Positions 12,263-27,409 of a stretch of DNA of 64,000 nucleotides are shown piece after piece. The stretch is from NCBI GenBank assembly GCA_963702005.1, contig OY969696.1, positions 2,144,001-2,208,000 of the forward strand, read 5' to 3'. Within the stretch, counting starts at the first letter, position 1; each line of letters opens with the position of its first letter. Under the pieces are notes generated by a model, which ran no database searches, was not told where the DNA came from, and saw nothing but the letters and a program-made list of their open reading frames with translations. The position numbers and the translations under genes were made by a program. This DNA is from Candidatus Aminicenantes bacterium (lineage in GTDB: Bacteria; Acidobacteriota; Aminicenantia; Aminicenantales; JAFGBC01).

Positions 12263-15200
12263 CTATTTTTTGTGATAGTTGGGGTAGGGGGGATGATCCG
12301 GGATGACGACGGGATTCTTTTTCAGCGCCTCCAGCGTCACCTGAACGGCCTTTTCGAGCTGGGGATCACGGCCGGCGGCGACGGAGGCGGGGTCGTTCTC
12401 CACCTCGATGTCGGGCGCGATGCCGCGGTTCTCCACCTCCCATTCGCCCTTCAGGCCGTAGATGGCCACCCGGGGAGCGGTCACAAAGCCGCCGTCCAGA
12501 AGGACAGGATAACCATAGATGCCGACCAGCCCTCCCCAGGTGCGCGTCCCGACCAAGGGGCCGATTTTATCCTGCTTGAACATCCAGGGAAGCGCGTCGC
12601 CGCCCGAGCCCGACATTTCATTGATGATCATCGTCTTGGGGCCGTAGATCTGCGCCAGGGGCGAGCAGAATTTCTCGCCCTCCCGGGTGACGCTGCAATT
12701 ACGCAGGGGACGGCTGAGAAGGTCGATAATGTAGTCGGCGATTTCACCGCCGTGGTTGTAGCGTTCGTCGATGACGGCGGCCTGCTTGCCGACCTGGGCG
12801 AAGTAGAAACGGTTGAAATTCTGGTAGCCGCCGACGGCCGTATCCGGCACGTGGACATAGGCGATCTTCCCGCCGCTCAGCTCATCCACCCGGCGGCGGT
12901 TGTCTTCCTCCCAAGCGCGGTTGCGCAGGGGGAATTCCGACTCGACCGGGATGACCGTGATTTCGCGCGAGTCTCGGCCGTCCGGATTCACGCCCACCTT
13001 GATCTTGACCTGTTTTCCGGCCGTGTTCTCCAAGAAGCCGTGCACGTCCGCCGGCGGGCGAACGGCCGCTCCGTTGATCTCCAGGAGATATTCGCCCGGC
13101 TTCACTTCCGCGCCGGGCTGCGTCAGGGGGGCGCGCAGCTCGGGATTCCAATTTTCGCCGCTGTAGATCCGCGCGAAGCGGTAACGCCCGTTCTCGATCG
13201 TGTAATCGGCGCCGAGCAGTCCGCCCTTGACCCTCTTCGCCGGGGGAAGGTCGCCCCCGAACACGAACATGTGGCCGATGGTGACCTCTCCGAGCATCTC
13301 TTCGAACAGATAATTGAGGTCGGCGCGGCCGCCCAAGCCCTTCAGGTACGGCGCATACTTCGTCTCGGCGGCGGCCAGATCCAGGCCGTGATGGTTCGGG
13401 TCATACAGGAAATCGCGCTGGATGCGCCAGACTTCATGGTACATCTGGTTCCAGCCGAGGCGCGGATCGACAGCGACCTCCATCGAACCGAGGTTGAGGG
13501 CGCCCTCGCCGGGCTTGGGCGCGGGCGGGCCGGAGGCGATAAACCAGCCGGGGCCCTGCCGGTAGAGGACCTTGTCTCCGCTGAACGAAACGACGAAGGC
13601 GGAGATTCCGCCCAGGAAGGGCTCGGTTTTGCGGGTGCTCAGGTCGAAGCTGGAGACGGTCAGCGGCGCGGGTTCGGTCAACGAGGGAACGGAAGGGATT
13701 TCGCTGAGGAAGAGCGTTCCCGCTTTGCCGGCGTCCAGACGGACGTAGTTCGCGGCCTTGATCGGCAGGGCCAGGATGCGCTGGCCGATGCCGTCGAGAT
13801 CGATCGTGACCTTGACGGCCTCTTCCTTCTTCTCCCCCTCTTTCCCCTTAGGGCTCTGCTCGGCCTTCGCGGCCTCTTTGGCCTTCTCGCCTTCCTTAGC
13901 CTTCTCGGCTTCCTTGGCTTTGTCCGGGGCCTTTTCCTCGTCGCTTTGCGGCTCGACCGGCGAGGGATCTCCCTTCTTCAACACGACCGCATAAATGCTG
14001 CGCGAAACGGGGCGCTGGTAGCTGGAAAGGTCGAGCCAGCCGACCGAAAGGCCGACGTCGGTGCTGGCCGCGAAGAACAGGGTCTTTCCGCCCTTGTCGA
14101 AGACGGGCATGCGCGCATCGCTCAAGCCGTCCGTGATCGGAGCGCTCTTCCCGGTTTCCAGCGAGAACAGGAACAGGCTGCGCAGGTGGTTGGGCAGGCA
14201 GCGGGAATAGACGATCCAGCGGCTGTCCGGCGACCAGGCCGGATCGAGGCCGTAGGTCGGATCTTCAAAAAGATCCTCGTCTACCTTCAGCGGCGCTCCC
14301 TTCTCGACGTCCAAGCACCAAAGATTCAGCCGCTTGTCGGTGTAGGCGATTTTCTTGCTGTCCGGCGACCAGCGCGGGCTGTAGAAGAACGACGGGGGAT
14401 CGCCCAGGCTGATCTTTTTCACCGGGCCGAGGCCGGACTGCGGGATCAGATGGAGCGCGTACTCTCCCGACTCGTCGGAAAAGCAGGCGATCCAGTTGCC
14501 GTCGGGCGACCAGGCCGGATCGCGCTCGGCGACCCCCGGCGTCCGGGTCAGGTTCCGGATGTCGCCCTTGGCGGCCGGCACCGTCAGGATCTCGCCGTAG
14601 GCTTCAAACAGGGCGCGCGCCCCCGACGGCGAGATCGCGGCGTTGACGATCTTCTCTCCGACATTTTCAAAGTGAGGCCGTGTCGAGGGCAGGTCGGCCG
14701 AAATCCGGATGTCGACGGGCCGGGACTTGCCGGTCTCCGGCTCGAACAGATAAATCCCGCCGAACTGCTCGTAGACGAGAGCATCGGGTCCGGCCGAGAG
14801 CGACTTGAAGTCCAGGCCGCCGTTGGCGACGAGCTGTTTGACGGTCTTGGATTTGGTCTCGTAGCCGAACAGCGTCACCGGTCCGTTGCGATCCGACAAA
14901 AAATAGATCGTGTCGCCCCGCCAGACCGGGTTCGAGTCATTGGAGTTGTCGCGCGGTATCTTCTCGAGGCTCAGGTCCTTGAGCCTCACGATATAAATCG
15001 GAGTGGTCTGGCCGCCCCGATAACGCTTCCAGGCGTTTTGCCATTTCAGGTTCGGGACGTAGGCGATCCGTGAGGCGTCGGGAGAAAAAGAACCTTCTTC
15101 GGCCCGCCACATGGGCAGGGCTTCCGGCCAGCCTCCACCGACCGGAATCGTGTAGAAACGATCGAAGTCGGCGTAGGCTTCCCGATCCGAACGAAAGAGC

Positions 15201-15565
15201 ACCCGCTCGCCGTCCGGCGTCCAGCCGACGGCGACGTCGGCGCCCGGATGCCAGGTGAGCCGCCGGGGCGCGCCGCCGGCCGCGGGCATGACGAAGACGT
15301 CGACGTTTCCGTCGTATTCGGCGGTGAAGGCCAGCCGCTGTCCGTCGGGCGAAAAGATCGCGCCCCTTTCGCGGCCGCCCGTCGTCAACTGGCGGGCCTG
15401 GCCGCCTTCACGCGAAACGCTCCATAAGTATCCTCCGTAGTTGAAGACGATCTCGGTTTTGCTCAGGGTCGGAGACTGAACGAGCAAGCGGGCATCGTCC
15501 GCCGCGGAAGCGGCCCCCAGACAGAGCGCGAATATGAAAAGAGCCATTACGAATCGAACGCGCAT
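12263..15565 (-). CDS. Tricorn-type S41 peptidase (beta-propellers + PDZ)
   Basis: PD40-like SPDG repeats, WKRYRGG, IDERYNHGG, SGSGGD catalytic region, GTRTWGGLVG, ENRGIAPD. Confidence 0.95.
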   Translation of the reverse strand: MRVRFVMALFIFALCLGAASAADDARLLVQSPTLSKTEIVFNYGGYLWSVSREGGQARQLTTGGRERGAIFSPDGQRLAFTAEYDGNVDVFVMPAAGGAPRRLTWHPGADVAVGWTPDGERVLFRSDREAYADFDRFYTIPVGGGWPEALPMWRAEEGSFSPDASRIAYVPNLKWQNAWKRYRGGQTTPIYIVRLKDLSLEKIPRDNSNDSNPVWRGDTIYFLSDRNGPVTLFGYETKSKTVKQLVANGGLDFKSLSAGPDALVYEQFGGIYLFEPETGKSRPVDIRISADLPSTRPHFENVGEKIVNAAISPSGARALFEAYGEILTVPAAKGDIRNLTRTPGVAERDPAWSPDGNWIACFSDESGEYALHLIPQSGLGPVKKISLGDPPSFFYSPRWSPDSKKIAYTDKRLNLWCLDVEKGAPLKVDEDLFEDPTYGLDPAWSPDSRWIVYSRCLPNHLRSLFLFSLETGKSAPITDGLSDARMPVFDKGGKTLFFAASTDVGLSVGWLDLSSYQRPVSRSIYAVVLKKGDPSPVEPQSDEEKAPDKAKEAEKAKEGEKAKEAAKAEQSPKGKEGEKKEEAVKVTIDLDGIGQRILALPIKAANYVRLDAGKAGTLFLSEIPSVPSLTEPAPLTVSSFDLSTRKTEPFLGGISAFVVSFSGDKVLYRQGPGWFIASGPPAPKPGEGALNLGSMEVAVDPRLGWNQMYHEVWRIQRDFLYDPNHHGLDLAAAETKYAPYLKGLGGRADLNYLFEEMLGEVTIGHMFVFGGDLPPAKRVKGGLLGADYTIENGRYRFARIYSGENWNPELRAPLTQPGAEVKPGEYLLEINGAAVRPPADVHGFLENTAGKQVKIKVGVNPDGRDSREITVIPVESEFPLRNRAWEEDNRRRVDELSGGKIAYVHVPDTAVGGYQNFNRFYFAQVGKQAAVIDERYNHGGEIADYIIDLLSRPLRNCSVTREGEKFCSPLAQIYGPKTMIINEMSGSGGDALPWMFKQDKIGPLVGTRTWGGLVGIYGYPVLLDGGFVTAPRVAIYGLKGEWEVENRGIAPDIEVENDPASVAAGRDPQLEKAVQVTLEALKKNPVVIPDHPPYPNYHKK

Positions 15566-15611
15566 GATTTCTCCTTGTCGGGAATGGGATATCCCTTAGT
15601 CATCGTTTGAA

Positions 15612-15641
15612 ATCCTACTCCTTGACTCTGGAATCTGTCAA
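15612..15641 (-). promoter_or_regulatory. Putative sigma70 promoter for the tricorn gene
   Basis: Minus strand TTGACA-N18-TAGGAT. Confidence 0.4.
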
Positions 15642-15733
15642 GACGATGAGATCCTCAATCCAAGCTCCTATCCCTACCATTTTTTTAGTATACTTAAGGG
15701 GCAATGAGAAGGGACACGAAAGGAGTCAGGACT

Positions 15734-17149
15734 ATGTCCGGAACCGCAATCGATAATCTGTTGAAGAATATGTCCGGTGTCGTCGCCAAAACGAAGAGCG
15801 GACTCAAGGTCGAGGATGAGACCGGCCTGCGCGGCCGGATGGACGTGCTTATTTTCGATGCCGTATTCGGCGACGATGAGACCAGGGCGGCCGCCCGCTG
15901 GATCGTGTGGGAGGCGGCCCAGGCCCTCGGCATCCGGCCGGCCTCGATCCAGGACCTCTACCTGGCCCGTGGCCGGGGGGCGGTCGACCGGGTCTTCACC
16001 GTTCCGGCCATAAACCTCCGGATGCTGGCCTACGATTCGGCCCGGGCCGTGTTCCGGGCCGCCCGCGCGCTCGAGGCCGGGGCCCTCATTTTCGAGATCG
16101 CCCGGAGCGAGATCGGCTACACCGACCAGCGGCCGGCCGAATACGCGACGGCCCTCCTGGCCGCGGCTGTCAAGGAGGGAGTCCGAGGCCCCGTCTTCAT
16201 CCAGGGCGACCACTTCCAGACGTCGGCCAAGAAGTACGCAGCCGCGGCCGAGAACGAGCTCAAGGCCATCCGCGACCTTATCCTCGAGGCCCTGGCGGCC
16301 GGGTTCTACAACATCGACATCGACACCTCGACCTTGGTCGACCTCTCCAAACCGACGCTGGCCGAACAGCAGGCGCTCAACTACGGCCTTTGCGCCGAGT
16401 TCACCCGCTTCATCCGGGAGCACGAGCCGAAGGGGATCACAGTTTCGGTCGGCGGCGAGATCGGCGAGGTCGGCCAAAAGAACTCGACGCCCGAGGACCT
16501 CGACGCCTTCATGGCCGGCTACCGGAAGAGCGTCGGCGGCCTCGCCGGCATCAGCAAGATCAGCGTCCAGACCGGGACGAGCCACGGCGGGGTCGTCCTC
16601 CCCGATGGCACGTTGGCCAAGGTCGCCATCGACTTCGAGGTCCTGCGCGTTCTGAGCGAGAACGCGCGCAAGAAATATGGGATGGGGGGAGCCGTCCAGC
16701 ACGGAGCGAGCACGCTCCCCGACTCGGCCTTCCACAAGTTCGTCGAGGCGGGTGCCTGCGAAGTCCATCTGGCGACGGCGTTTCAGACTCTGATCATGGA
16801 CCACGAGGCGACGCCCGAGGCCCTGCGCGGGGAGATCCATGATTGGCTCCGGGCCCACGCCGCCGACGAGCGCAAGCCCTCAGACACCGAGGCCCAGTTC
16901 CTTTACAAAGCGCGCAAGAAGGCGATCGGCCCTTTCAAAAAACAGTTTTGGTCGCTGCCGGAAAGCGGCCGGGCGGCGATCGGGGCCGGCCTCGAGAAAC
17001 AGTTCCGGTTCCTGTTCGAGCAACTGGGGATCGCCGGGACGGCGGGCATCGTCGCCGAGTTCGTCCGGGCGCCCGAGGTCCATCAGGCGGTCCCGGCCGG
17101 CGGGGTCCAGAAGGTCAAAAAAGAATCCGTCCACGGCCTGGCCGACTGA
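15734..17149 (+). CDS. Class II fructose/tagatose-bisphosphate aldolase family protein
   Basis: VPAINLR, FIQGDH, GGEIGEVG, GTSHGG and VQHGAS metal-binding motifs. Confidence 0.85.
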   Translation: MSGTAIDNLLKNMSGVVAKTKSGLKVEDETGLRGRMDVLIFDAVFGDDETRAAARWIVWEAAQALGIRPASIQDLYLARGRGAVDRVFTVPAINLRMLAYDSARAVFRAARALEAGALIFEIARSEIGYTDQRPAEYATALLAAAVKEGVRGPVFIQGDHFQTSAKKYAAAAENELKAIRDLILEALAAGFYNIDIDTSTLVDLSKPTLAEQQALNYGLCAEFTRFIREHEPKGITVSVGGEIGEVGQKNSTPEDLDAFMAGYRKSVGGLAGISKISVQTGTSHGGVVLPDGTLAKVAIDFEVLRVLSENARKKYGMGGAVQHGASTLPDSAFHKFVEAGACEVHLATAFQTLIMDHEATPEALRGEIHDWLRAHAADERKPSDTEAQFLYKARKKAIGPFKKQFWSLPESGRAAIGAGLEKQFRFLFEQLGIAGTAGIVAEFVRAPEVHQAVPAGGVQKVKKESVHGLAD

Positions 17150-17200
17150 ACGGATTCCAATAAAGCCCGCCCGGGCGGGCCGCTAACTGAAGGAGGGAAC

Positions 17201-17512
17201 ATGAACCGGTCTTTTCGGATCGCATTGGCGGTGGTCGTCCTATGTCTGATGCTGGCGAGCCTGAGCTGCGCTCCCGGCCCGAACGATATGGAAAAGACGG
17301 CAGACCGCGAGGGCCGGACGGCGGGTTTCCTGAGGGGGATCTGGCACGGCTTGATCTCGCCGATCACCTTCGTCATCTCGCTCTTCAGCAGGAACGTCCG
17401 CTTCTACGAGGTCCACAACAATGGCTCCTGGTACAACTTCGGTTTCGTCCTGGGCGCGGGCCTTTTCCTGAGCGGAGGCATCCTGGGCCGGAAGCGAGGC
17501 TGGAAACGCTGA
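17201..17512 (+). CDS. Small membrane lipoprotein, hypothetical
   Basis: Lipobox-like LASLSC, GFLRGIWHG, YEVHNNGSWYNFGF; AAGGAGG RBS. Confidence 0.8.
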   Translation: MNRSFRIALAVVVLCLMLASLSCAPGPNDMEKTADREGRTAGFLRGIWHGLISPITFVISLFSRNVRFYEVHNNGSWYNFGFVLGAGLFLSGGILGRKRGWKR

Positions 17513-17525
17513 ACCGGATATTTTC

Positions 17526-18248
17526 TTAGAACCGCTTCGAGGTGTAGCGGTCCAGGGCTTTCTTGAGGTCGTCGACGGCGGACGGCGTCTTGAGGGCTTT
17601 ATCGAAAAAGATGTCCGGAGGCTGGAGGTTACGGCCGTAGAACGCCTGGTCGGCGTCCTCGTCGACCTTTAAGCTGGCCCCTTTGATGGAGATGCCCGCG
17701 AACAATCCCTTGCTCTTGGAGTAGGAATAGATCTCGGCCTTCATCTCCCAATCGGTGCTGGCCTCGGCCGAACGTCCGACCGGCCCGGCCGCGACGCCGA
17801 CGTCGGCCCCCAGCGTGAGGTCTCCCTTGACGACGTTGTCGATGCCCCGCCGTGTCTTGAAGACGAGGATGACGTCGGCCTTCTGGACGCCGATCTGCCA
17901 GCCGATGCTCCCGCCGATCAGGGAGATGAAGACGGGGTTCGACCATTCGCCCCGATCGTTCTTGACGACGATCAGGCCCCGGCCGTACTGGCCTCCGAAT
18001 CCGTAGGCGGCTTTGATGACGCCGGGGATGATGGCCAAACCATAACATTTGTCGAGAAGCGCCGAGGGAAGCCCCTCCTCAGGGATGTCGACGAGCTCCC
18101 CGAGGACCCGGATGGATTCGGCGATCCGCTCGCCCCCCGGGGAATCGGCGACTCCGGCCGGAGCCGGCCGGGCCGGGAGCGCGAGGCCGGTCGAGCCGAA
18201 CGCCGCTATCGCCAGAATAACAATCAAACGACGTGTCTGTTTGATCAT
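17526..18248 (-). CDS. Lipid-binding SYLF (Ysc84-like) domain protein
   Basis: GFGGQYGRG, GGSIGWQIG, VAAGPVGR, YSYSKSKGLFAG; signal peptide. Confidence 0.9.
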   Translation of the reverse strand: MIKQTRRLIVILAIAAFGSTGLALPARPAPAGVADSPGGERIAESIRVLGELVDIPEEGLPSALLDKCYGLAIIPGVIKAAYGFGGQYGRGLIVVKNDRGEWSNPVFISLIGGSIGWQIGVQKADVILVFKTRRGIDNVVKGDLTLGADVGVAAGPVGRSAEASTDWEMKAEIYSYSKSKGLFAGISIKGASLKVDEDADQAFYGRNLQPPDIFFDKALKTPSAVDDLKKALDRYTSKRF

Positions 18249-18344
18249 GGTATTCTCCTCGCCTGAAACGTTCATCTTAACATATATACGGCTAAAAATA
18301 GCTGGAGTTTGAGAACGAGAGAGCTGACCCGTTCGCCGACGCCA

Positions 18345-18517: not shown

Positions 18518-18545
18518 GGGCGGCCCTCACGGCGAGAGCCGCCCT
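18518..18545 (-). terminator. Possible terminator hairpin downstream of the Trx-TPR gene
   Basis: GGGCGGC...GCCGCCC stem, followed on the minus strand by the AT-rich TTAATATTT. Confidence 0.45.
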
Positions 18546-18568: not shown

Positions 18569-20092
18569 CTACTTTTTCTCCGCGGCTTTTTTTTCCTCGT
18601 CCTGGGCTTTCTTGATCCGCTCCAGCCTCTGCTTGAAATAGTCAACCTGGTCGCCGGCGAGCTTGATCGCCTCCTGGGCGGCCTTTGTCGCCTCGTCGTA
18701 CTTCTTCATCTTGAGGTAGATGGTGGCGACGATATCCCAGACATAGGAGGAGGGCGTCAGCTCGAGGGCCCGGTTGGCCGCGGCCAGCGCGCTCTCGAGA
18801 TTCGCCCCCTGATTAGCCCAGAAGCGGGCGTAGGGCGCGAGGGAGTCGGACTTGTCCCAGTTTTTTTTGGCGTAGTCCGAACCGAGAACGGCCAGGGCCT
18901 GGTCCTTTTTATCAAGGTTCCAGTAAACGCCCGCGGCCTGCATCAAGAGATAGGCGCTGTCGGGATTCAACTTGAGGGCTAAATCGACCATCTTGAGGAC
19001 GCTTTCGGTGTTGGCCTTCTGCTTGGTCCAGAAGTTCGCATATTCGATGAGGTCGTAGCCGAGGCGGGTGACCTTATCGTTCATGACGGCCTTGCCGTAG
19101 ACGTCATCGGCCTTAGCCTGATCGCCCTTGAGAATGTAGAGCTCGGCCAGGTTCTGCTGGAAGGAGGAGATCGGGTTGTATTCGGTGAGCTTCTCGATCT
19201 TCTTGGCGAGTTCGATCCCATGATCGACGTCCGCTTTGTTCTTGATTAAGAATTCCACATAGGAATTGAGGGCGAAGGGTTTATCGGGGAACTTGGCGAC
19301 GTATTCCTCGAAGAAGGGCGCAGCCTTGTCCCTGGACTCGTCCCGATAATAATAGCTCAAATACTGGTAGGCATTTTCGAGGAGCTTGCTCTGGGGATAC
19401 TTGGCGATAAAGGCTTTCAGCGGGGCCGCGTCTCTATTCGGCCAATTGAAGACGGCCATCTGGCCGAGCGAGAACTCTGCGTATTCGGTGTAGCTGACCT
19501 TCTCCCCGTTCCAGGTTTCGGTCGTGCCGAGCTTCCCCTCGGGGTCGAGGGCGATGACTTCCTTGAAGAGAGCCTTGGCCTTGTCCTGGGCGGTATAGCG
19601 GTCGTCGTATTTCTTGGCGAGCTTGAAGATGACATCGATCGCCTTGGGCTCTTTGGCGTAGCGCTCGGCCAAGACCTTGTAGGTGTCGATCCCGTTGATC
19701 GTATTCTCGACCCTGGCGTGGAACTTTTCGGCGGGCGGCCCGTAGCCGACCTGCCAGTCGACTTCGCTCCCGTCGCCAGCCACGAAAAGCACCGTCGGAG
19801 TCGCGCTGACTTTATAGCGCTTGAAGATCGCCTCGCCTTTCCGGTCGGCGCGGTCGGCCAGGAACATGACGAAATGGGTTTTAAAGAATTCCTGAAACTT
19901 CGGATTTGCGAAATACTGCTGACCCAGCAGTACGCAGGAGCCTCAGCCACCGGAGAAGAAGTCGATGAGGACTAACTTCCCTTCGGACTTGGCCTTGGCC
20001 AGGGCTTCGTCCAATGAGCCCTGGAACCAGCTCTGTCCGAAGGCCGCGGTGGCGAGGAGACAGAACATCAGCATGGCAGCGAATTTTTTCAT
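18569..20092 (-). CDS. Predicted selenoprotein: signal peptide + thioredoxin-like domain (UxxC = U-G-S-C) + TPR repeats, 507 aa
   Basis: ATG at 20092 with an AAGGAGG RBS gives MKKFAAMLMFCLLATAAFGQSWFQGSLDEALAKAKSEGKLVLIDFFSGG[TGA at 19945-19943]GSCVLLGQQYFANPKFQEFFKTHFVMFLA..., in frame with the annotated 18569..19867 ORF. The Trx cis-Pro motif TPTVLF follows, and a SECIS lies just downstream of the TGA. Confidence 0.85.
19907..19936 (-). promoter_or_regulatory. Bacterial SECIS element
   Basis: mRNA UGA-GGCUCC-UGCG-UACUGCUG-GGU-CAGCAGUA-UUU-CGCA: 8-bp upper stem, G-initiated apical loop 18 nt after the UGA, and a 4-bp lower stem. Confidence 0.8.
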
Positions 20093-20224
20093 GAACGTCT
20101 CGCCTCCTTGGGCATTCTTGAATACTCTATCCTATGTATAATCCTATACGCAAAACACCCTCTCTATCAATACGCAGGTCAAGACGCCTTGGTTGCCGCC
20201 GTTGGGCGTCCTTTCGCCGTTTCT

Positions 20225-21033
20225 CTATTCTTTCTTCAGACGGAGGCGGAATGTGGGGGCGGGCTTGTCCTCGAGGGCGTGGGCGGCCCAAAGCATCCCG
20301 CGCTGGACGATCGTCCGGGCCTGGGGGACATCGAAGTCCTTGGCGACGTGGCCGAGCGAGGTGTAGAAGACCCGTCCCTTTCCGTAGTACTTCTTCCAGA
20401 CAACGGGCATGACGACGCCCTCGACCCAGGGCGCGTACTTTCCGGAGAAGGTCGTCGCAGCCAGGACCTCGTTGCCGGGGTCGACCAGCATGTAGTACTG
20501 CTCGGAGTTCATCTTGAAGTCGGTCAGGCCGGCCGTGATCGGGTCGTCGTGGTTGACGATGTTGACCTCGTAATCGATGACTCCGCCCGGGTGGGCGGCC
20601 CAGGCGCCGCCGACCATGAATTCATACTCGGTATTGCTTCGGAACGCGTCGGCCATGCCGCCGTGCCAGCCGGCCATGCCGACTCCGCTCTTGATGGCTT
20701 CGAGCAGGCCCGACTGCTGCTGGGGGGTGATCGTCGACATGGTGAAGACCTGGACGATGAGGTCGAGGGATTTCATTTTCGCGGCGTCAAGGTAGGAATC
20801 CAGGGTCGTCGAGATCTCGACCTCGAAGCCCTGCTCGGCCAGCCAGGGCGCGAAGATGTCCACGCACTGCTTGGGTTCGTGGCCCTCCCAGCCGCCCCAG
20901 ACGAACAAAGCCTCTTCTTCTTTTCCTGGCTCGCTCCGGGAAGGGTCATCAGAAATGCGCCCAATAAAATGACGATCGGCCAAAAAGCAAGCTTGGACCG
21001 GGCGGCGGGATGTCGAGTTGTTTTGTCAGTCAT
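20225..21033 (-). pseudogene. ThuA-like domain protein with signal peptide, split by a -1 frameshift near 20911-20925 (real or assembly error)
   Basis: The 21033 frame gives a leader ...[10 protein letters not shown]. The 20983 frame continues [13 protein letters not shown]...GWHGG...SEQYYM...VFYTSLGH. Confidence 0.75.
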
Positions 21034-21038
21034 GGCGG

Positions 21039-21794
21039 TCAGAGCTCTCGAATCCAGATATTGCGGTAGCGGACCGGGTTCCCATGGTCCTGGAGCGAGA
21101 GGGGGAGCTTGTCCGGATGGGCCTTGTAGGGCGGACGCGCCTTGTGGGCGGTCGGACCGGTCAGCACGTCGTTGTCATGGACGAGGATGCCGTTGTGGAA
21201 GACCGTCATCCGGGCCGGCTTGAGAAGAGACCCGTCCGGCGCGAATCGGGGCGCGTGGAAGATGATGTCGTAGCTCTGCCACTCGCCCGGAGGCCGGCAG
21301 ACATTGACGAGGGGGGGGAACTGGCCGTAGATGGCGGCGGCCTGTCCGTCGGCGTAGGTCCGGTTCTGATAGGAATCGAGGACCTGGACTTCGTAAGTGT
21401 CCATCAGGAAGACGCCGCTGTTGCCGCGGCCCTGGCCTTCGCCTGCAACGACCGCCGGCGACGCCCATTCGACGTGAAGCTGGCAGTCGCCGTACCCTTT
21501 TTTGGTCCGGATCGAGCCCGTCTCGGCGACGACTTCCATGAAACCGTCCGCGACCTTCCAGCCGGCCGGATTCCCTTTAGTATCCTCCCATTGGGCGAGG
21601 TCCTTGCCGCTGAAGAGGACGACGGCGTCCGAGGGGGCGGGGGAGGGCGGTCCGGACGAACCCGGATCGACGACCGCCGGGACGGGCCGGTTCATATCGT
21701 GGATAGCCCAATCCTGGCCGCCGGACGCGCCGGCCCACACCAAAGCGGCCGAAATTAATAGACCTGTCAGCGCTAGAATTCGGAGGCTCGTCAT
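21039..21794 (-). CDS. DUF1080 / 3-keto-disaccharide hydrolase family protein
   Basis: PSDAVVLF, GNSGVFL, YEVQVLDS, GEWQSYDI, LQDHGNPVRYRNIWIR; signal peptide. Confidence 0.92.
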   Translation of the reverse strand: MTSLRILALTGLLISAALVWAGASGGQDWAIHDMNRPVPAVVDPGSSGPPSPAPSDAVVLFSGKDLAQWEDTKGNPAGWKVADGFMEVVAETGSIRTKKGYGDCQLHVEWASPAVVAGEGQGRGNSGVFLMDTYEVQVLDSYQNRTYADGQAAAIYGQFPPLVNVCRPPGEWQSYDIIFHAPRFAPDGSLLKPARMTVFHNGILVHDNDVLTGPTAHKARPPYKAHPDKLPLSLQDHGNPVRYRNIWIREL

Positions 21795-21816
21795 GGCCGG
21801 ATTCCTCTCGGCCCGG

Positions 21817-23208
21817 TCAGAGGGACCAGCCGGAACGGTATTCCTTGTGGACGAACGGGTTGGCCTCCGGGAAGTTGGGGAACACCATTTTCTCAGAGTC
21901 CCATTCGAGGATGACCTTCGATTCCTTGAAGCGGAGCGCGATATTCCCCAGGAGCATCATCTCGGTCAGCGCGCCGGCGTAGCTGAAGTCCGTCGTCGAT
22001 TTCTTGCCCGCTTTGATGGCCGCGATCCATTCCTCGTGGATGCCGGGAGAGCGGGGGATGGTTTTGTCAGGCCGCTTGTAGTCCTTCATGAGCTGGTCGG
22101 GGAGAAGGCGGGGGCTCTCTCCGTAGGTCGAACAGACGAGCATGCCTTTGTCGCCGACGAACAAGCAGCCGCCGCCTTCGTCGCCCAACATCAGGCCGTT
22201 GGCGAGGGCGGCCGGCCGGGGCGGCGTCAGGCCGCCGTCGTACCAGGTGAGCTTGACCGGGGGGAATTTGTCCCGGGCCGGAAATTCGTAGCTGATGACC
22301 TCGGCCAGAGGGTAGGAGTCTTTGGTGAACGGCGTGCCGCTCGCCTGGATTCGTTTGGGAGCGCCCAGCTTGAGGGCCCAGAAGGGCTGGTCGATGAGGT
22401 GGGCGCCCATATCGCCCAGCGCGCCCGTCCCGAAGTCCCACCAGCCTCGCCAGGCGAAGGGGAGGTAAGCCGGGTGATAGGGCCGCCAGGGGGCCGGCCC
22501 GAGCCAGATGTTCCAGTCGATGGTCGGGGGGACGGAGGGAATCTCGGTGGGGGCGTTAATGCCTTGGGGCCAGATGGGGCGGTCCGTCCAAACATGGACC
22601 TCGCGGACCGGTCCGATGGCGCCGTTCCAGATCCATTCGCAGACGAGACGCGCGCCTTCCTTGGAATGGCCCTGATTGCCCATCTGGGTGACGAGGTTCC
22701 GCGCCTTGGCTTCCTGGGCGAGCAGGCGGGCCTCCTTGACGGTATGGGTCAAGGGCTTCTGGACGAACGCGTGCTTGCCCTGCTTCATGGCCGTCATGGC
22801 GGCCACGGCGTGGAAATGGTCGGGGGTGGAAACGGTGACGGCGTCGATATCCTTGACCTTGTCGAGCATCTCCCGAAAGTCGCGGAACTTGGCGGCCCGC
22901 TCGAACTTCGCTTTCTGCTCGGGGGTGGGCTCGTCCCATTTCAGGAATTTCTCCATCATGACGTCGTCGACATCGCAGAGCCCGACGATATTCTCGGTCG
23001 AGACGCTGACGATATCGGAGGCGCCCTTGCCCCAGACCCCGATGCAGCCGATGTTGAGGGTGTCGCTCGGCGCCTGGTAGCCGCGGCCTCCCAAGACGCG
23101 GCGGGGCACGATCATCAGCCCGGCGGCCGCGGCGGCCGTCCGGCCCATGAACTCGCGGCGGGTCAGGTTCGTAGGCTTGGCTGAAGCATTTTTGCGGGAG
23201 TTAGACAT
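21817..23208 (-). CDS. Tat-exported Gfo/Idh/MocA oxidoreductase
   Basis: TRREFM Tat signal, STPDHFH, QKPLTH, TQMGNQG, WRGWWDFGTGALGDM. Confidence 0.93.
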   Translation of the reverse strand: MSNSRKNASAKPTNLTRREFMGRTAAAAAGLMIVPRRVLGGRGYQAPSDTLNIGCIGVWGKGASDIVSVSTENIVGLCDVDDVMMEKFLKWDEPTPEQKAKFERAAKFRDFREMLDKVKDIDAVTVSTPDHFHAVAAMTAMKQGKHAFVQKPLTHTVKEARLLAQEAKARNLVTQMGNQGHSKEGARLVCEWIWNGAIGPVREVHVWTDRPIWPQGINAPTEIPSVPPTIDWNIWLGPAPWRPYHPAYLPFAWRGWWDFGTGALGDMGAHLIDQPFWALKLGAPKRIQASGTPFTKDSYPLAEVISYEFPARDKFPPVKLTWYDGGLTPPRPAALANGLMLGDEGGGCLFVGDKGMLVCSTYGESPRLLPDQLMKDYKRPDKTIPRSPGIHEEWIAAIKAGKKSTTDFSYAGALTEMMLLGNIALRFKESKVILEWDSEKMVFPNFPEANPFVHKEYRSGWSL

Positions 23209-23363
23209 GGAGTTCCCTCCTCAGGAATTAATGGTTTTGAAAAACATTCTCCTTACTATAGCCGCAGACCTTTCTTCGAGTCAAGCCGTGCAGGCTCAGC
23301 CGACGAGGCTTCTAGTACTCAGGGCTTCCCTGAGTATGAAGCTCGAAGAACGCGAACCGATCC

Positions 23364-26153
23364 CTATTCCCGGATGAAAACGTTCTTGAACGAGAGCGGC
23401 GTGCTGTGGGCCTGGAGCTCGATCTGGCCCGATGGGTAGATGGGCTTATCCCGCTCCCAGTAATTCTCCATGACGACATTGTCCACGACCAGGATGCCGT
23501 TGAGCCAAGCCGTGACCCGCTCGCCCTTCATCAGGATCCGGAAGGTGTTCCAAGTCCCGATGGGGTTGTCGGCGGGCCGCAGGGGCTTGGATGGATTGAC
23601 TTTATTATTGTAGAGGCCTCCCGAGCCTTCGGGCCAGCGGGCCGGGTCCCAGATCTGGACTTGGGGCGATCCGCGCAGGTAGATCCCGCTGTCGCCCTGG
23701 GGTTCGATCTTCCAGTCGACGAAAAGCTCGAAGTCGGTATAATCCCCTATCGTGCACAAGCTGGCGCCCTGGCCGTCGAACATGAGGCACCCGTCGACGG
23801 CCCGCCAGTGGCGCCGCATATCCTCGTCGGCCGCGGCCTGAGCCTTTTGGAATTCCCGAGCCGTCATCTTGGCCCTACTGACGGGATCCTCGACCAGGCC
23901 TTTCCAGCCCGAGAGGGTTTTCCCGTCAAAGAGCCGGACAAATCCCTCGCGGATGAGGAGGGCCGCGGCGTAATCCTCGACGCGCCGCCGGTCGAAATCG
24001 TTGTCCATGAGCGGGGCGGCCTTCTTGAGGGCCAAAGCCGTTTCCATGCCGCCCAGCCCTTCCGCTCCGGAGCCGGGAAGGGCGATCCCGACAACGGCTT
24101 CGGCCGCGAACTCGCGGAGCTCGGGATCGTCGAGGACCGCGGCCGCCAGCGCCAAGGATTCCGCGGAGCGGCTATTGCGGAGGGCTTGGAGGATGAGCTT
24201 CTTTTCGCCCGGCTCTTTGGCGTCGGCCCAGACGCTGTTGAGCAGACGGGATAGGTCCGCCGCAGAGAGACCGGGATCCTTGGCTAGGCGCGTCAGACCC
24301 TGGACCGCCAGATAATGAAACTTCGGGTCTTCCGTTCGCTTCAACACCGTGAACAGTCCCTCGAGCGCGTCCGGGCTCGGCCAGATGGACAACGCATGGA
24401 CGGCTACCGCCTGGACGAGAGGATCGCTGTTTTGAGTATCAGACAGGACCGCATCGAGGGCTTTCGCCCCTCCCACTTTGGGCAGGATCCGAATGAGATC
24501 AACTCGCTTGGTGCCCGATAGGGATGCCAAAGCCCTTAAAATGGGCTCGACCCTGCGATCGGGCTCGGGAATCCGAATGGCCGAGGCGGCCAGTGCGTTC
24601 TGGAGCGGCGCCGTTTCGGCGGCGTCGGTGCTTTTCAAGAGGAGATCCAGCAGCCGAGGCAGATCTTCGGCGCGGACGACCCGCTCCAGGGCGGCCAATG
24701 AAGCGTGTCTGACCTCCTCCGAATCGCTGCGGATCAGTCCTAAGATTCGATCCGTCTGCTCCCCGGCCCGGCGCTCGGCCAGGACCTCGATCAGCGCGAC
24801 CTGAGATACGGGGGGAACGCCGTCGAGGAGAGCGGCCGCCTCGGTGACCGCTCGGGCCGCCGGGGCTGAAAGCAGAGTCTCCTTGACAATCGTCGTTTCC
24901 TCCGTCTCTCCCGAGTTTAAAAAAGGAAGAAGCTCGGGGAGCGAATCTTCTCCCGCCAGGCGGGCCAGGGCCGCCATCGCGGCGAGGCGGACGCTACGGT
25001 TGGAATCCTTCAGTCCTTCTCGGACGGCGGGGAGCGCGGCCGGATCCCGCCGCCGGCCGAGCATGGCCATGATCTCAACCTTGCTCTCGGTCGAGGCCCC
25101 CGCCATCTTGTTCAGGAAGCGCGACGTTGCCTCCGAGCCGGGGAGGGTCTCCGCCATATCGAGGGCCCGGACGCGGTAATCTTTATCCCCCGAATCGACG
25201 GCGCCGAGGAGGTCGTCGAGGGCGGCCGGGCCGAGGATGTCGGCGAGGAGGGACAGCGCTTGACAGCGAACCTGGCTTTCTGAGGGCTGGAGATAATTCT
25301 TGAGAATTCCGCGGCAGATATCCTCGGCCGCCTTCCGTTCTCCGTTTTCAAAAAGGCGCCGGCCGTAGAACAGGTATAGCGAAGCCGTCCTCGTTCTCTC
25401 CGCGGCCGGGGCGAGCAGGGGGATCCGTTCGAAGGCGGGCGCGGCCGCCGGGTCTCCACTCTGGGCCAGGGCCTCCATGGCGGCCATCCTCAATATCCCA
25501 TCCTTGTCTTGGGCGAGGGGAAGGAGCTTGGCGACGGCCTTGCGGCTTCGCAGCCGGCCCAGGGCTTGGGCGATGGAAACCCGGATGTCCGTCGGCGCGC
25601 CGGCCAAGGCTTTGACGAGATTTCGTTCCGCGTTTTCGCCGCCGATCGCGGCGAGGGCCCGGGCGGCAGGATCAGCGATCCGTCCGTCTCCGAGACAAGC
25701 CGTCAAGGCCTTGATCGCCTCTTTTCCCCCCGCCAGCTGGAGCTCGCTGATGAGAAAGGCCCTAACCTCGGCGGGCGCGGCGTTCTTCAAGTTGTCGGCG
25801 AGGGCTTTGGCAAAGGACGTCTTTTCATTCGCCGCCCCGGATCTCGACGCGTAGACGGCCAAGGCGTCCAGGGCATAGCGGACCAAAGTGTCGTCGGCCG
25901 CTCCGGCCGGAACGAGCCTCGCGCAGAGGTCGCCGACGGCACGCGGCCCGAGAGCCGTAAGCTCCGCCGCCAGAGCATCCCGCTCCGCGGAGGTCCGGGC
26001 CGGGAACCGGACGAGAATCGAGTCGAGGGACGGCCTGACCGCGCGCGTCTCGGTTCGAGCGTCTCCCTGCGAGGATATAATGAGGAGCGCGAAGACCAGG
26101 GCGGCGGTCGCCCTCGAGGGGCGTCTTGCGGTTTTCGCGATTCTTGGCGTCAT
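23364..26153 (-). CDS. HEAT-repeat protein with a C-terminal DUF1080 domain
   Basis: Many HEAT-like repeats (e.g. VRLAAMAALARL), then LFDGKTLSGW, DSGIYLRG, GEWN-like GTWNTF, LQAH. Confidence 0.9.
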   Translation of the reverse strand: MTPRIAKTARRPSRATAALVFALLIISSQGDARTETRAVRPSLDSILVRFPARTSAERDALAAELTALGPRAVGDLCARLVPAGAADDTLVRYALDALAVYASRSGAANEKTSFAKALADNLKNAAPAEVRAFLISELQLAGGKEAIKALTACLGDGRIADPAARALAAIGGENAERNLVKALAGAPTDIRVSIAQALGRLRSRKAVAKLLPLAQDKDGILRMAAMEALAQSGDPAAAPAFERIPLLAPAAERTRTASLYLFYGRRLFENGERKAAEDICRGILKNYLQPSESQVRCQALSLLADILGPAALDDLLGAVDSGDKDYRVRALDMAETLPGSEATSRFLNKMAGASTESKVEIMAMLGRRRDPAALPAVREGLKDSNRSVRLAAMAALARLAGEDSLPELLPFLNSGETEETTIVKETLLSAPAARAVTEAAALLDGVPPVSQVALIEVLAERRAGEQTDRILGLIRSDSEEVRHASLAALERVVRAEDLPRLLDLLLKSTDAAETAPLQNALAASAIRIPEPDRRVEPILRALASLSGTKRVDLIRILPKVGGAKALDAVLSDTQNSDPLVQAVAVHALSIWPSPDALEGLFTVLKRTEDPKFHYLAVQGLTRLAKDPGLSAADLSRLLNSVWADAKEPGEKKLILQALRNSRSAESLALAAAVLDDPELREFAAEAVVGIALPGSGAEGLGGMETALALKKAAPLMDNDFDRRRVEDYAAALLIREGFVRLFDGKTLSGWKGLVEDPVSRAKMTAREFQKAQAAADEDMRRHWRAVDGCLMFDGQGASLCTIGDYTDFELFVDWKIEPQGDSGIYLRGSPQVQIWDPARWPEGSGGLYNNKVNPSKPLRPADNPIGTWNTFRILMKGERVTAWLNGILVVDNVVMENYWERDKPIYPSGQIELQAHSTPLSFKNVFIRE

Positions 26154-26155
26154 GT

Positions 26156-27409
26156 TCATAGCGTCCAGGGCGAACGCATAGGTTCGCCGATCAACCGGTT
26201 CGCCTCATCATCTCCGATGAACCTCTCGCGCTCGGGATCGAAGCGAAGCCCGCGTCCGAGCCGGACCGCGATCTTGGCCAGGTTGACGAGCGTGCAGGAG
26301 CGGTGTCCGTTCTCCTCGTTCAGCGGGAATTTTCGGCGCTCACGGACGGCCCTGCTGAAATCGGAATCCTGCGGTTCGGGGTCGGGCAGGGAGGCCACGG
26401 TCTCCTTGATCCTGGGGATATCCGAATCGAACCCCCGCATGAGCTTGCCCAGAGGACCTTGGAGAAAAGGAGCGTTCGGATCTTTGTTTTCGCCGTCGAG
26501 AAAAATCTCGCAGCCGTCCGCATATCGCAGCCGGACCCAGCTCCAGGAGCCGCAGGCGTCCGGGTGCTGCTGGGGCGCTTCGGCTTCGACCTCCACCGGG
26601 CCCGTGCCGTCCTTGTCGAGGAGGTACTGGACGGGGTCGAGATAGTGCTGGCCCATGTCCCCCAGGCCTCCGCCGTCATAATCCCAGTAACCGCGGAAGG
26701 TCCCATGGACCCGGTGAGGGTGGTAAGGTTTTTCGGGCGCCGGGCCGAGCCAGAAATCATAATCGAGGTCCGCGGGCACGGGCTGGGGCGGGAGCCAGGT
26801 CTTGCCGCTCCAGTAGAATTTCCAATCGAATCCGGTGGCCCGGCTGACCGTGACCTTGAGCGGCCAGCCCAGCAGTCCGCTCCGGACGAGCTTTTTGATC
26901 GGCTTGACCTCCGTTCCGAAGCCGTAGAAAGTGTCCTGGAACCTGAACCAGGTGTTGACGCGCAGCATCCGGCCGTTTCTGCGGACCGCCTCGACGAGCC
27001 TCCGGCCTTCTCCGATCGTCCTGGTCAACGGCTTTTCACACCAGATGTCCTTGCCCGCCTCGGCGGCGGCCGCGGCGATCAGGGCGTGCCAGTGGGGCGG
27101 GGTCGCGACGTGGACGATATCGATGTCGGGACGTGCCAGGACCTCGCGGAAATCCCGATAACCCTTGACGCCGGGCCCGCCGATCTCCAGGGCTTCTCTG
27201 AGGTGACCGGCGTCGACATCGCAGACGGCCAGGAGTCTCGCGCCCGGATAGGTCAGGTGGCCCTGCCCCATGTTCCCCACGCCGATGACGGCCTTGGTCA
27301 GCTCGTCGGAAGGGGCCGTGAAGCCGGAGCCGCCCAGGACGCGGCGCGGCACGATGGTCGCCGCGGCGGCGGCCAGGGCCGCCCGCTTGAGGAAGTTGCG
27401 TCGATCCAT
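26156..27409 (-). CDS. Tat-exported Gfo/Idh/MocA oxidoreductase
   Basis: DRRNFLK, ATPPHWH, WCEKPL, GLGDMGQH. Confidence 0.93.
   Translation of the reverse strand: MDRRNFLKRAALAAAAATIVPRRVLGGSGFTAPSDELTKAVIGVGNMGQGHLTYPGARLLAVCDVDAGHLREALEIGGPGVKGYRDFREVLARPDIDIVHVATPPHWHALIAAAAAEAGKDIWCEKPLTRTIGEGRRLVEAVRRNGRMLRVNTWFRFQDTFYGFGTEVKPIKKLVRSGLLGWPLKVTVSRATGFDWKFYWSGKTWLPPQPVPADLDYDFWLGPAPEKPYHPHRVHGTFRGYWDYDGGGLGDMGQHYLDPVQYLLDKDGTGPVEVEAEAPQQHPDACGSWSWVRLRYADGCEIFLDGENKDPNAPFLQGPLGKLMRGFDSDIPRIKETVASLPDPEPQDSDFSRAVRERRKFPLNEENGHRSCTLVNLAKIAVRLGRGLRFDPERERFIGDDEANRLIGEPMRSPWTL

Follow-up and report, generated by a model that had tools for sequence, protein, structure and literature searches.

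Does the minus strand of this window, the whole 64,000-nt stretch of Candidatus Aminicenantes DNA analyzed here, encode an ordinary tetratricopeptide repeat (TPR) protein, or is that protein the remainder of a longer gene whose in-frame UGA is read as selenocysteine (Sec)? Translation with table 11 yields two open reading frames, one of 49 aa (19943..20092) and one of 432 aa starting at 19867. On direct reading, 20092..18569 of the minus strand forms a single gene of 507 codons and a stop, which opens with ATG at 20092..20090, closes with TAG at 18571..18569, and is broken only by a TGA at codon 50 (19945..19943). With this TGA taken as U, the product has 507 aa and contains the motif G-G-U-G-S-C. 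An earlier sequence-only reading had extended the frame upstream of the annotated start at 19867 to an RBS-preceded ATG at 20092, and had described a 507-aa product interrupted solely by a TGA at the first position of U-G-S-C. Both claims agree with the frame, and a Shine-Dalgarno-like AAGGAGG is present 10 nt ahead of the ATG (20109..20103, minus strand). From the reading frame, the homologues, and an AF2 model, we consider it very probable that 18569..20092 (minus strand) is one complete gene for an exported selenoprotein with a single Sec-UGA, which probably acts as an envelope thiol-disulfide oxidoreductase.

A sigma-70-like promoter match (TTGATA, 18-nt spacer, TAGGAT; 9 of 12 positions) is located at 20141..20170, and an intrinsic-terminator-like hairpin of 12 pairs, 9 of them G-C, starts 25 nt past the stop (18518..18544); both, on the minus strand, are consensus matches only. 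The neighboring genes in the window encode ThuA, 3-keto-disaccharide hydrolases, GFO/IDH/MocA oxidoreductases, a Ysc84 protein, and a tricorn-like S41 protease. No redox link or functional hint was found among these window neighbors, and all-vs-all clustering of the flanking ORFs at more than 100 loci, in which spurious high-GC frames dominate, was uninformative on neighbor conservation.

The read-through product combines a signal-peptide-like start with two domains. Its N-terminus, read by eye, consists of MKK, a hydrophobic core, and AFG followed by Q; a Sec-type signal peptide is thus predicted at residues 1-19 (20036..20092, minus strand) with cleavage between AFG and Q, on the basis of this reading and of similar N-termini in homologues. 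A basic and hydrophobic N-terminal segment that ends in A-x-A before Q is common to 47/47 order-level copies, in keeping with the signal peptide that the sequence-only reading had assigned. The thioredoxin-fold (Trx) domain covers residues ~23-132 (19697..20026, minus strand), includes U50-G-S-C53 and Pro99, and is recognized by Pfam, the AF2 model, alignment, and PDB profiles. Thioredoxin_7 (PF13899) matches residues 23-105 with 45.1 bits (E 1.1e-11, cut-off 27) and Thioredoxin_2 (PF13098) matches residues 34-125 with 44.9 bits (cut-off 27), so that the recognized domain spans the TGA codon. Position 50 (Cys or U), C53, and P99 are invariant across 29 aligned sequences, and Pro99 is presumably in the cis form. 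PDB profile matches of this domain are 2kuc (3.5e-16) and DsbD-gamma (2e-7). The AF2 model of the full read-through product has a mean pLDDT of 92.5 and shows a Trx fold with a beta-alpha-beta pattern at residues 27-132, in which motif 50-53 sits between strand 1 (40-46) and helix 1 (56-62), with the conserved Pro in the loop ahead of strand 3; the helix at residues 3-16, within the signal-peptide region, has low pLDDT.

The remaining residues, ~138-507 (18572..19681, minus strand), form an all-alpha TPR-like domain according to Pfam, AF2, and Foldseek. TPR_14, TPR_2, TPR_8, and TPR_19 all score above their cut-offs, the model is wholly alpha-helical over residues 138-506, and a Y-A-x-F-W-x2-Q-x2-N-x-E-S motif is repeated at residues 351 and 421. 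Foldseek returned TPR superhelices (E 1.8e-7) of a generic kind (SPY, OGT, designed CTPRs, and LbcA at rank 17), with no specific functional analogue among the matches.

Comparison with homologues shows that the UGA at codon 50 (19943..19945, minus strand) is conserved at the same column. The unbiased sample is a whole-protein search of 61 related genomes, of which 27 yielded 48 homologues that cover the N-terminus; each homologue carries a single N-terminal TGA, save one copy with three. Full-length homologues at 37-53% identity likewise have one TGA each. TGA occupies the same column in 47/47 distinct order-level copies, in 62/62 metagenomic copies, and in 76/76 copies from named MAGs, and the union of these sets amounts to 163/163 distinct homologous copies fetched. 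It is even retained in homologues of only 31-35% identity that belong to another family of the phylum. The dipeptide between the redox residues varies among the 163 copies, UGSC (68), UGGC (47), and UGAC (23) being joined by UPSC, UPGC, USSC, UGPC, and others. Contigs from three sequencing runs of two studies (X2, X3, and X4), which are independent wetland assemblies, span 19914-19945 with no listed difference in the TGA or in the hairpin described below, while nearby differences at 19901 and 19973 are listed. The sequence-only reading had proposed a check of the TGA in raw reads; at the level of assembled contigs, the comparison is in favor of the codon.

Cys is found at this column in other homologues. 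It is present in 17/21 N-terminus-covering representatives, in P0122 (509 aa, 610 bits), where the motif is CQGC, and in L162, a Bacteroidetes MAG protein with 32% identity over the Trx domain, whose WCGPC aligns to the Sec column. The expectation that homologues would have Cys or TGA here is thus largely confirmed. A fragment, P0188, has S at the column, and five database proteins (P0028, P0108, P0113, P0254, and P0258) have W. Trp had been named in advance as a sign against Sec, and a few such entries do exist, but the relatives of two of them carry TGA: all 62 of 62 metagenomic relatives of P0108 do so (the contig of P0108 itself is not among the 76 metagenome loci), as does L241, a genomic relative with 50% identity to P0258, exactly where P0258 shows W. 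A locus search for P0254 found none. The most plausible source of the W entries is a TGA translated with a different table, probably in a table-4-type call on short contigs.

Immediately downstream of the UGA lies a putative bacterial SECIS hairpin (19914..19932, minus strand), identified by comparison, fold, and codon constraint. It has an 8-bp stem and a GGU loop, covers codons 54-60 (V-L-L-G-Q-Q-Y), and reads UACUGCUG-GGU-CAGCAGUA at 19932..19914. The sequence-only reading had described a perfect 8-bp stem with a GGU loop 18 nt past the UGA; the stem and the loop stand, while the distance needs correction, as the stem begins at 10 nt and 18 nt is the distance to the loop. The fold of the window copy by itself is only suggestive, with z = -2.0 against shuffles for the 61 nt around the hairpin and 7/200 shuffles folding equally well. 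It is the comparison of homologues, rather than this single fold, that marks the hairpin as more than chance. Helix columns 20-27/31-38 are paired in 97.6% of cells, as compared with 17.6-62.2% when the partner is slid; 0/500 shuffles reached the observed value, and RNAalifold predicts the same helix. Three stem pairs covary among the TGA copies. At the pair that closes the loop, 33 copies have G-C and 14 have C-G, with no broken pair, and stem pair 21-37 is A-U in 41 copies, C-G in 4, G-C in 1, and G-U in 1. Additional swaps from C-G to U-A are synonymous on both sides of the stem, with Leu CUG changing to UUG together with Gln CAG to CAA, and changes from Gln to Glu in the stem peptide accompany a compensating synonymous change of the Leu codon.

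Published bSECIS criteria (as given in the Fig. 2 legend of PMC13188914) specify a stem of 4-16 bp, a loop of 3-9 nt with G in its first two positions, a UGA-to-loop distance of 16-37 nt, and an MFE of <= -7.5 kcal/mol. All 47 of 47 copies lie within these four criteria, with a stem of 7-8 bp, a 3-nt loop in which position 1 is an invariant G, a distance of 18 nt, and hairpin MFEs of -8.6 to -11.7 kcal/mol; such hairpin-conservation counts are somewhat selected, as the motif filter behind the 47-, 62-, 76-, and 163-copy sets includes hairpin-encoded residues, and so does one of the two search patterns behind the named-MAG set. The L-L-G-Q-Q residues of the stem are also conserved as protein, and part of the nucleotide conservation could be due to protein constraint. 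The covarying pairs and the invariance at the codon level indicate that this is not the whole explanation. Where two copies share a residue, the chance that they also share its codon is 0.536 over the gene as a whole and 1.00 at Leu55, Gln58, and Gln59. Of 501 seven-codon windows, the 10 with the highest codon identity all begin at codons 49-58, and the minimum of synonymous variation falls exactly over the hairpin. As for the idea that the hairpin would be conserved only in TGA copies, it is indeed conserved and covarying there, and its loss from the closest Cys form, P0122, in which DLLSRQ replaces the hairpin-encoding peptide, is seen at the peptide level only, a search of genome contigs having found no P0122 locus.

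The genome has the machinery that Sec decoding would require. The sequence-only reading had asked for selA, selB, selC, and selD, and all were found in one cluster, selA-selD-selB-tRNA-Sec, at C1:765451-770102, with scores above cut-offs for selA (561.7 bits), selB (255.3/288.1 bits), and selD (364.6 bits) and a tRNA-Sec of 73.8 bits with anticodon UCA. TGA terminates 1185/2368 long open frames and is the commonest ordinary stop of this genome, and therefore UGA has not been reassigned. Across the 61 related genomes, the gene and selA are both present in 26 and both absent in 33, the gene occurs without a detected selA in 1 (G010), and selA occurs without the gene in 1; these genomes are kin, and the table overstates their independence.

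These observations bear on how the UGA is otherwise to be understood. One alternative is that translation truly ends at the TGA; the cell would then make the 432-aa TPR protein from 19867, with the 49 codons upstream left as a remnant or as a small ORF of their own, as in a pseudogene or split gene. Table 11 gives exactly these two ORFs, and nearly all public gene calls have the shortened form. However, the gene callers place their starts at different profile positions (55, 76, 102, and others), so that a conserved internal start is lacking, and a product beginning there would lose strand 1 and the active site, given that the Trx domain (residues 23-105) spans the TGA. Unlike decaying genes, moreover, the copies (163/163, down to 31% identity) all retain the frame, the single TGA, and the signal peptide, and within the 61 genomes the gene is found only alongside selA, with G010 as the exception. 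We regard a true stop as very improbable. To the same small degree we would credit read-through without selenium, in which UGA is taken as Trp or Gly, or is passed by near-cognate or programmed decoding, and position 50 is Trp, Cys, or Arg. The five W-bearing database proteins speak for it, but relatives of such entries have TGA in their DNA (62/62 and L241), and TGA is the most frequent terminator in the genome (1185/2368 long frames). Each gene has the codon at a single place, its redox-active position; the genome encodes a full Sec system, whose occurrence goes together with that of the gene, and the downstream hairpin fits the bSECIS model. A sequencing or assembly error has a negligible probability, as the same codon recurs in 163/163 distinct copies from independent assemblies and no difference is listed at this site in the contigs of the three runs (two studies); nothing was found in favor of such an error.

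Reading the gene as one for a selenoprotein is strongly supported by this comparison of sequences. During translation, UGA at codon 50 would be decoded as Sec, and the hairpin 10 nt past it (7-8 bp stem, 3-nt loop with G first) would act as the SECIS that brings SelB and Sec-tRNA(Sec) to the ribosome, with selA, selD, selB, and tRNA-Sec supplied from one cluster. The product would have a cleavable signal peptide, a domain of Thioredoxin_7/DsbD-gamma type with Sec as the attacking residue, and a TPR-like superhelix of ~370 aa. The most likely role is that of a cell-envelope thiol-disulfide oxidoreductase. A CcdA-type channel, whose gene lies elsewhere in the genome (DsbD_TM at C1:243392-244006, the only such match found), may keep the selenoprotein reduced, and binding of partners or clients is a possible task of the TPR domain. 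Domain identity and the signal-peptide-like N-terminus suggest both the periplasmic oxidoreductase role and the recruitment of clients. The G-x and G-P dipeptides and the WCGPC of Cys relatives would favor reductase or isomerase activity over that of an oxidant of DsbA type. The genome also encodes a VKOR-type homologue, and DsbB was not found in it (94% complete); since a reductant channel (CcdA type) and an oxidant (VKOR type) are both encoded, this inventory of partners is ambiguous as to the redox direction.

It is possible, but rather unlikely, that a protein of this same structure does another job, as a DsbA-like oxidant driven by VKOR, a CnoX-like envelope holdase, or a protein that acts on peroxide or transfers selenium or sulfur. 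The presence of the VKOR homologue is consistent with the first of these, and the order of Trx followed by TPR, also seen in CnoX/YbbN, a cytoplasmic chaperedoxin, with the second; in addition, peroxidase-like proteins are among those with Sec in a UxxC motif (Table 1 of PMC13188914). Against them, the Trx domain matches Thioredoxin_7, DsbD-gamma, and "disulphide-isomerase" types and not DsbA or Prx, and the Cys relatives mostly have WCGPC-type motifs, which are typical of reducing thioredoxins; neither the 60 listed PDB sequence hits nor the displayed Foldseek matches include a CnoX/YbbN entry.

The proposed envelope oxidoreductase shares features with several known systems. Table 1 of PMC13188914 contains a "Thiol:disulfide interchange protein" selenoprotein family (PF13098, UxxC). 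Compared by Pfam domain and UxxC motif only, that family has in common with the present one a Thioredoxin_2/7 domain, Sec as the first residue of UxxC, and a bSECIS directly 3' of the UGA, whereas here Trx is fused to a TPR-like domain of ~370 aa and a signal peptide, and the distribution is centered on Candidatus Aminicenantes. The UGSC-containing family (NF041046) of the GOS and Sargasso Sea surveys (PMC2398784), mostly aquatic and with no Pfam or COG domain in the GOS table, has the U-G-S-C tetrapeptide of the window copy and likely a Trx-like fold. Membership in that family was rejected: the NCBIfam hmmscan gave no NF041046 match at E <= 1 (HMMER filters may drop very weak matches), and the dipeptide varies across the 163 copies. 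The common UGSC is a four-residue coincidence at the sequence level and not evidence of membership.

The best NCBIfam similarities of the Trx domain are to the C-terminus of the TsoB selenoprotein (E 2e-10, 39.4 bits against a cut-off of 805) and DsbD (NF001419; E 7.8e-9, 34.6 bits against a cut-off of 330), of which only the gamma-like domain aligns. DsbD-gamma and the TsoB C-terminus are envelope-located redox relay domains. The window protein has no membrane domain and has a TPR domain in its place; identity with full-length DsbD was rejected on this ground and on the low score. CnoX/YbbN consists of an N-terminal thioredoxin fold and a C-terminal TPR module that binds client proteins, in the same order as in the window protein. 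CnoX, however, is cytoplasmic, shorter, and Cys- or Ser-based, whereas the window protein contains Sec, its TPR region is much longer, and its predicted signal peptide argues against a cytoplasmic location. The same architecture, with detectable homology, is found in exported or lipoprotein Trx-TPR CxxC proteins (for example L162, P0224, P0236, and P0248; profile E 1e-44 to 1e-54), which are shorter (340-430 aa), have Cys for Sec, and lack the LLGQQ hairpin-encoding peptide.

That annotation pipelines would call the gene a plain TPR protein, as had been anticipated, is evident from the public gene calls, which are shortened "TPR repeat proteins" of ~400-450 aa. The product scores below the cut-off of every NCBIfam model. 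No description of a Trx-TPR selenoprotein family was found in the literature searched, although the groundwater-MAG survey of Deng et al. could list it. The terms "TPR", "tetratricopeptide", and "Aminicenantes" were not found in the text of PMC13188914, PMC13326102, and PMC12013277. We conclude that the family is new, that it belongs to a well-known kind, the Trx-fold UxxC selenoproteins, and that it is characteristic of Candidatus Aminicenantes. To our knowledge, Trx-fold UxxC proteins are the commonest kind of selenoprotein, and the family brings no new principle.

Whether this envelope-located, Sec-obligate Trx-TPR family is the signature selenoprotein of Candidatus Aminicenantes is in our judgment evenly balanced. 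Practically every member of the order that uses Sec may carry 1-5 copies of the gene, often arranged in tandem; where the Sec machinery is lacking, the gene may be missing altogether instead of being converted to Cys. Its SECIS may be unusually minimal (7-8 bp, 3-nt loop) and written into the conserved L-L-G-Q-Q peptide, which, just after the active site, may interlock RNA and protein constraints. If so, this selenoprotein would be a main reason that Aminicenantes lineages keep selABCD. As a predicted envelope Sec enzyme from an abundant uncultured lineage of sediments and wetlands, it tracks the Sec machinery almost one-to-one and thereby offers a concrete handle on why Aminicenantes use selenium. 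The small and uniform SECIS, with its clean compensatory changes, constitutes a natural data set for the minimal needs of a SelB-binding element and for how an RNA signal constrains the encoded peptide.

Hundreds of database entries for the family are shortened and named "tetratricopeptide repeat protein", and a simple model (signal peptide, U-x-x-C Trx, ACUGCUG-GNU-CAGCAGU hairpin, TPR) would correct them. The catalogue of ~119 prokaryotic selenoprotein families described in PMC13188914 would grow by one. In candidate division KSB1 there is also a Sec branch that is shorter and whose hairpin differs, which suggests that Sec may have been recruited more than once in the exported Trx-TPR superfamily.

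On the minus strand of the window, a frame runs from an ATG at 20092, with AAGGAGG 10 nt 5' of it, to a TAG at 18571..18569, and its sole interruption is a TGA at 19945..19943 (codon 50). The sequence-only reading had proposed the same extension to an RBS-preceded ATG across a lone in-frame TGA. Translation table 11 splits this gene into two ORFs, one of 49 aa and one of 432 aa, the latter beginning at the internal ATG 19867. With the TGA read through, the product has 507 aa and three parts: an N-terminus that resembles a signal peptide (MKKFAAMLMFCLLATAAFG then Q, with a predicted cut before Q), a thioredoxin domain (Pfam Thioredoxin_7, residues 23-105, 45.1 bits against a cut-off of 27; Thioredoxin_2, 44.9 bits), and TPR repeats over the C-terminal 370 residues (Pfam). 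The TGA encodes the first position of the U-G-S-C in G-G-U-G-S-C. A promoter-like site upstream of the gene and a strong terminator-like hairpin 3' of its stop, both consensus matches only, would fit a monocistronic unit.

The TGA is conserved wherever the DNA of this family was recovered. A whole-protein search of 61 same-order genomes, in which stops were read through and counted, yielded, in 27 genomes, 48 homologues that include the N-terminus (37-53% identity), each with one N-terminal TGA except for a copy with three. This copy (L041, G011:C31, from a genome with 6% contamination) could represent a decaying copy, an assembly problem or extra Sec codons. The pattern used to extract loci from these genomes allowed any residue at the Sec column, and TGA occupies the same alignment column in 47/47 distinct copies. 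The same was found for 62/62 distinct copies on metagenome contigs (9 of the 76 loci are without the N-terminus) and for 76/76 copies in named species-representative MAGs, and TGA is kept at 31-35% identity in three lipoprotein-type homologues from a different family of the same phylum (L143, L144 and L145; family f22, genus g48). The union of these overlapping sets comprises 163/163 distinct sequence contexts with TGA, and the motif dipeptide varies among them (UGSC 68, UGGC 47, UGAC 23, then UPSC, UPGC, USSC, UGPC and others). In three wetland-metagenome runs (two studies), contigs of strain variants, which differ from the window at 2-36 positions, cover both TGA and hairpin. The listed differences, outside which lie 23 less-supported ones, include 19901 and 19973 and none at 19914-19945.

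A perfect 8-bp stem with a GGU loop is located at 19932..19914 (minus strand). Stem and loop are those of the sequence-only reading, which had set the hairpin 18 nt after the UGA; the stem starts after 10 nt, and it is the loop that follows after 18 nt. In an ungapped alignment of 47 elements, columns 20-27 pair with columns 31-38 in 97.6% of cells, and the same helix is predicted independently by RNAalifold. Sliding the 3' partner by 1-3 columns lowers pairing to 17.6-62.2%, and 0/500 shuffles do as well as the real alignment in pairing or covariation. At the pair that closes the loop, 33 copies have G-C and 14 have C-G, and it is broken in none; this swap exchanges Gln for Glu on one side and is synonymous on the other (Leu CUG to CUC). 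Pair 21-37 is A-U in 41 copies, C-G in 4, G-C in 1 and G-U in 1, and the variable outermost pair is broken in 9/47. In further copies C-G is replaced by U-A with neither residue altered (Leu UUG opposite Gln CAA), and in one copy the compensation is double. The 7-bp core is fully paired in 162/163 copies, a count that is partly selected in the filtered sets because the motif filter, and one of the two patterns for the MAG set, include hairpin-encoded residues; TGA codon counts are free of this selection, and the 61-genome whole-protein search is unbiased.

The bSECIS model in the Fig. 2 legend of PMC13188914 describes a loop of 3-9 nt, a stem of 4-16 bp, 16-37 nt from UGA to loop, a G in the first two loop positions and an MFE <= -7.5 kcal/mol. 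By all four criteria of that legend 47/47 copies lie within the model, with a 3-nt loop, an invariant first G, 18 nt spacing and a hairpin-only MFE of -8.6 to -11.7. Across 40 non-redundant full-length genes, copies that share a residue also share its codon with a probability of 0.536 over the whole gene and of 1.00 at Leu55, Gln58 and Gln59, and the ten top of 501 seven-codon windows for codon identity all start at codons 49-58. This peak supports an RNA constraint at the hairpin.

The complete 4.31-Mb contig C1 of the window's own genome contains a tRNA-Sec (73.8 bits; anticodon UCA, ARAGORN) directly following selA (561.7 bits), selD (364.6 bits) and selB (above cut-off). The selA/selB/selC/selD set on which the selenoprotein claim depended is present in full, as a compact cluster outside the window (C1:765451-770102). 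Since the selD frame has no internal stop, SelD is not itself a selenoprotein here, and since TGA terminates 1185/2368 open frames of at least 400 codons, it has not been reassigned in this genome. Judging from its gene content, the genome is able to insert selenocysteine.

Among the 61 same-order genomes, 27 have selA; gene and selA occur together in 26, the gene only in 1, selA only in 1 and neither in 33, a table that carries no statistical claim as the genomes are kin. The gene-only genome (G010) holds its copy on a 1.5-kb contig nearly identical to another genome's copy over the Sec-flanking stretch, and its family is otherwise devoid of both genes, so that this contig is likely mis-binned; the selA of the selA-only genome (G035) is partial. 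Presence is patchy over seven families, which implies several gains or losses. The whole-protein search of these genomes found no Cys version in selA-less relatives, where the gene seems to have been lost rather than converted.

An exhaustive profile search of 1.84 billion representatives returned 402 clusters at E <= 1e-30. Among the best 150 of these, 39 by count open precisely at profile position 55/56, the first start available past U-x-x-C, and many others start at 76 or 102; these clustered starts are a truncation signature of gene calls. In a word-index search, nearly every public entry is a 'tetratricopeptide repeat protein' of 400-450 aa from Candidatus Aminicenantes, the plain TPR label that had been foreseen for standard pipelines. 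The N-terminus is covered by 21 representatives, with Cys at the column in 17, W in 2, S in 1 (a fragment) and a frame-switched call in 1; TGA or Cys had been anticipated for homologues, along with a hairpin confined to TGA copies. On the latter point, the full-length Cys orthologue P0122 (509 aa, 610 bits) has DLLSRQ after its CQGC in place of the hairpin-encoding xLLGQQ, a putative loss judged at the peptide level. In L162, a Bacteroidetes MAG protein, WCGPC aligns to the Sec motif.

Trp at the column appears in three full-length public entries, all on 2.2-2.7-kb contigs. Their relatives have TGA in the DNA (62/62), and at the very column where P0258 shows W, a KSB1 genome with 50% identity to it reads TGA; because of this TGA in relatives, we infer that W would reflect gene calling with a TGA=Trp table. 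P0188, a 153-aa fragment with Ser at the column and the KLLGEQ hairpin peptide kept, and P0202, which shifts to the +1 frame across the TGA, look like gene-calling or assembly artefacts. Many loci of clearly Aminicenantes-type genomes are titled 'uncultured Eubacteriales bacterium' (third-party MAG assemblies) and one 'Terriglobales bacterium', probably automatic labels and not true taxonomy.

An AlphaFold2 model from a 29-sequence alignment (mean pLDDT 92.5) begins with a low-confidence N-terminal helix in the signal-peptide region. Residues 27-132 then adopt a thioredoxin fold in which strand 40-46 and helix 56-62 flank the U-x-x-C, and residues 138-506 form an all-alpha domain. PDB profile matches to the thioredoxin part include 2kuc, a Bacteroides 'putative disulphide-isomerase' (3.5e-16), 2lst and DsbD-gamma (2e-7), and the remainder resembles generic TPR superhelices. 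In the NCBIfam search no model reaches its cut-off; TsoB and DsbD come closest, through their C-termini, and NF041046, the model of the UGSC family, gives no match at E <= 1. Genes for a CcdA-type channel and for a VKOR homologue are present in the genome, and DsbB was not found there. Domain identity, reducing-type dipeptides and WCGPC in Cys relatives suggest that the product may be an envelope thiol-disulfide reductase or isomerase with Sec as nucleophile, and the TPR domain may be a platform for partners. Within this domain, Y-A-x-F-W-x2-Q-x2-N-x-E-S-[AV]-L occurs twice on the minus strand (residues 351-366 and 421-436; nt about 18995-19042 and 18785-18832). The repeat, whose second copy has Y421 and W425 without variation across 29 sequences, could mark a site that binds a ligand or partner.

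No other class of bacterial selenoproteins is as common as the thioredoxin-fold UxxC proteins, and we see in the present family a new one of a familiar kind, well founded, of use in annotation and moderately interesting. Also of note are how closely it follows the Sec trait in the lineage (almost one to one), its arrangement in tandem arrays of several copies, and its very compact SECIS, which is interlocked with a peptide that is itself conserved. A 'thiol:disulfide interchange protein' selenoprotein family (PF13098) is already listed in the family table of PMC13188914, and the 'UGSC-containing protein' family, as far as its published description goes, has only the tetrapeptide in common with ours. 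No description of a TPR-fused or Aminicenantes selenoprotein was found in the literature covered, which included this review, BSepDB and deep-Sep and stopped short of supplements and the groundwater-MAG survey that the review cites.

Carrier genomes (27) have 1-5 copies. The window's own genome has a second intact copy outside the window (L066, C1:1013352-1015061; 569 aa, one Sec-UGA) with the same hairpin, a GUC loop and one extra TPR module bearing a third Y-A-x-F-W motif. Two to four paralogues stand in tandem at L032/L056 (G012:C81), L039/L059 (G018:C31) and L053 (G040:C124), and every one of them has a Sec codon and a hairpin of its own. Three longer frames (L061, L062 and L063; G040:C46, G040:C86 and G030:C169) reach 759-814 aa with TGA stops read through, match the C-terminal TPR part several more times and carry U-G-N-C or U-G-S-C.

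The distant loci L143, L144 and L145 encode 433-444 aa with a lipobox-like signal (..AAAC then QQ) and U-G-P-C, and in two of them a C-G pair of the hairpin has become U-A through changes that are all synonymous. A shorter exported-type Trx-TPR relative of about 350 aa in a candidate division KSB1 MAG (L241, match 601-1614) has TGA at the same column (DFWSDG-U-GGC). Its downstream RNA differs, with a possible 4-bp GACC/GGUC stem and GGGC loop about 22 nt after the UGA; its database relatives P0254 and P0258 show W at the Sec column. This KSB1 relative may represent a Sec branch of its own within the superfamily.

Downstream of the window gene, on the same strand (12263-18275), lie genes for a protein with a Ysc84 domain, one of 394 aa that matches nothing in Pfam, and a tricorn-like S41 protease of 1100 aa. 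Upstream, a sugar-oxidation-type cluster (20225-27409, minus strand) encodes ThuA, two GFO/IDH/MocA oxidoreductases and two 3-keto-disaccharide hydrolase domain proteins, one of which is fused to HEAT repeats.
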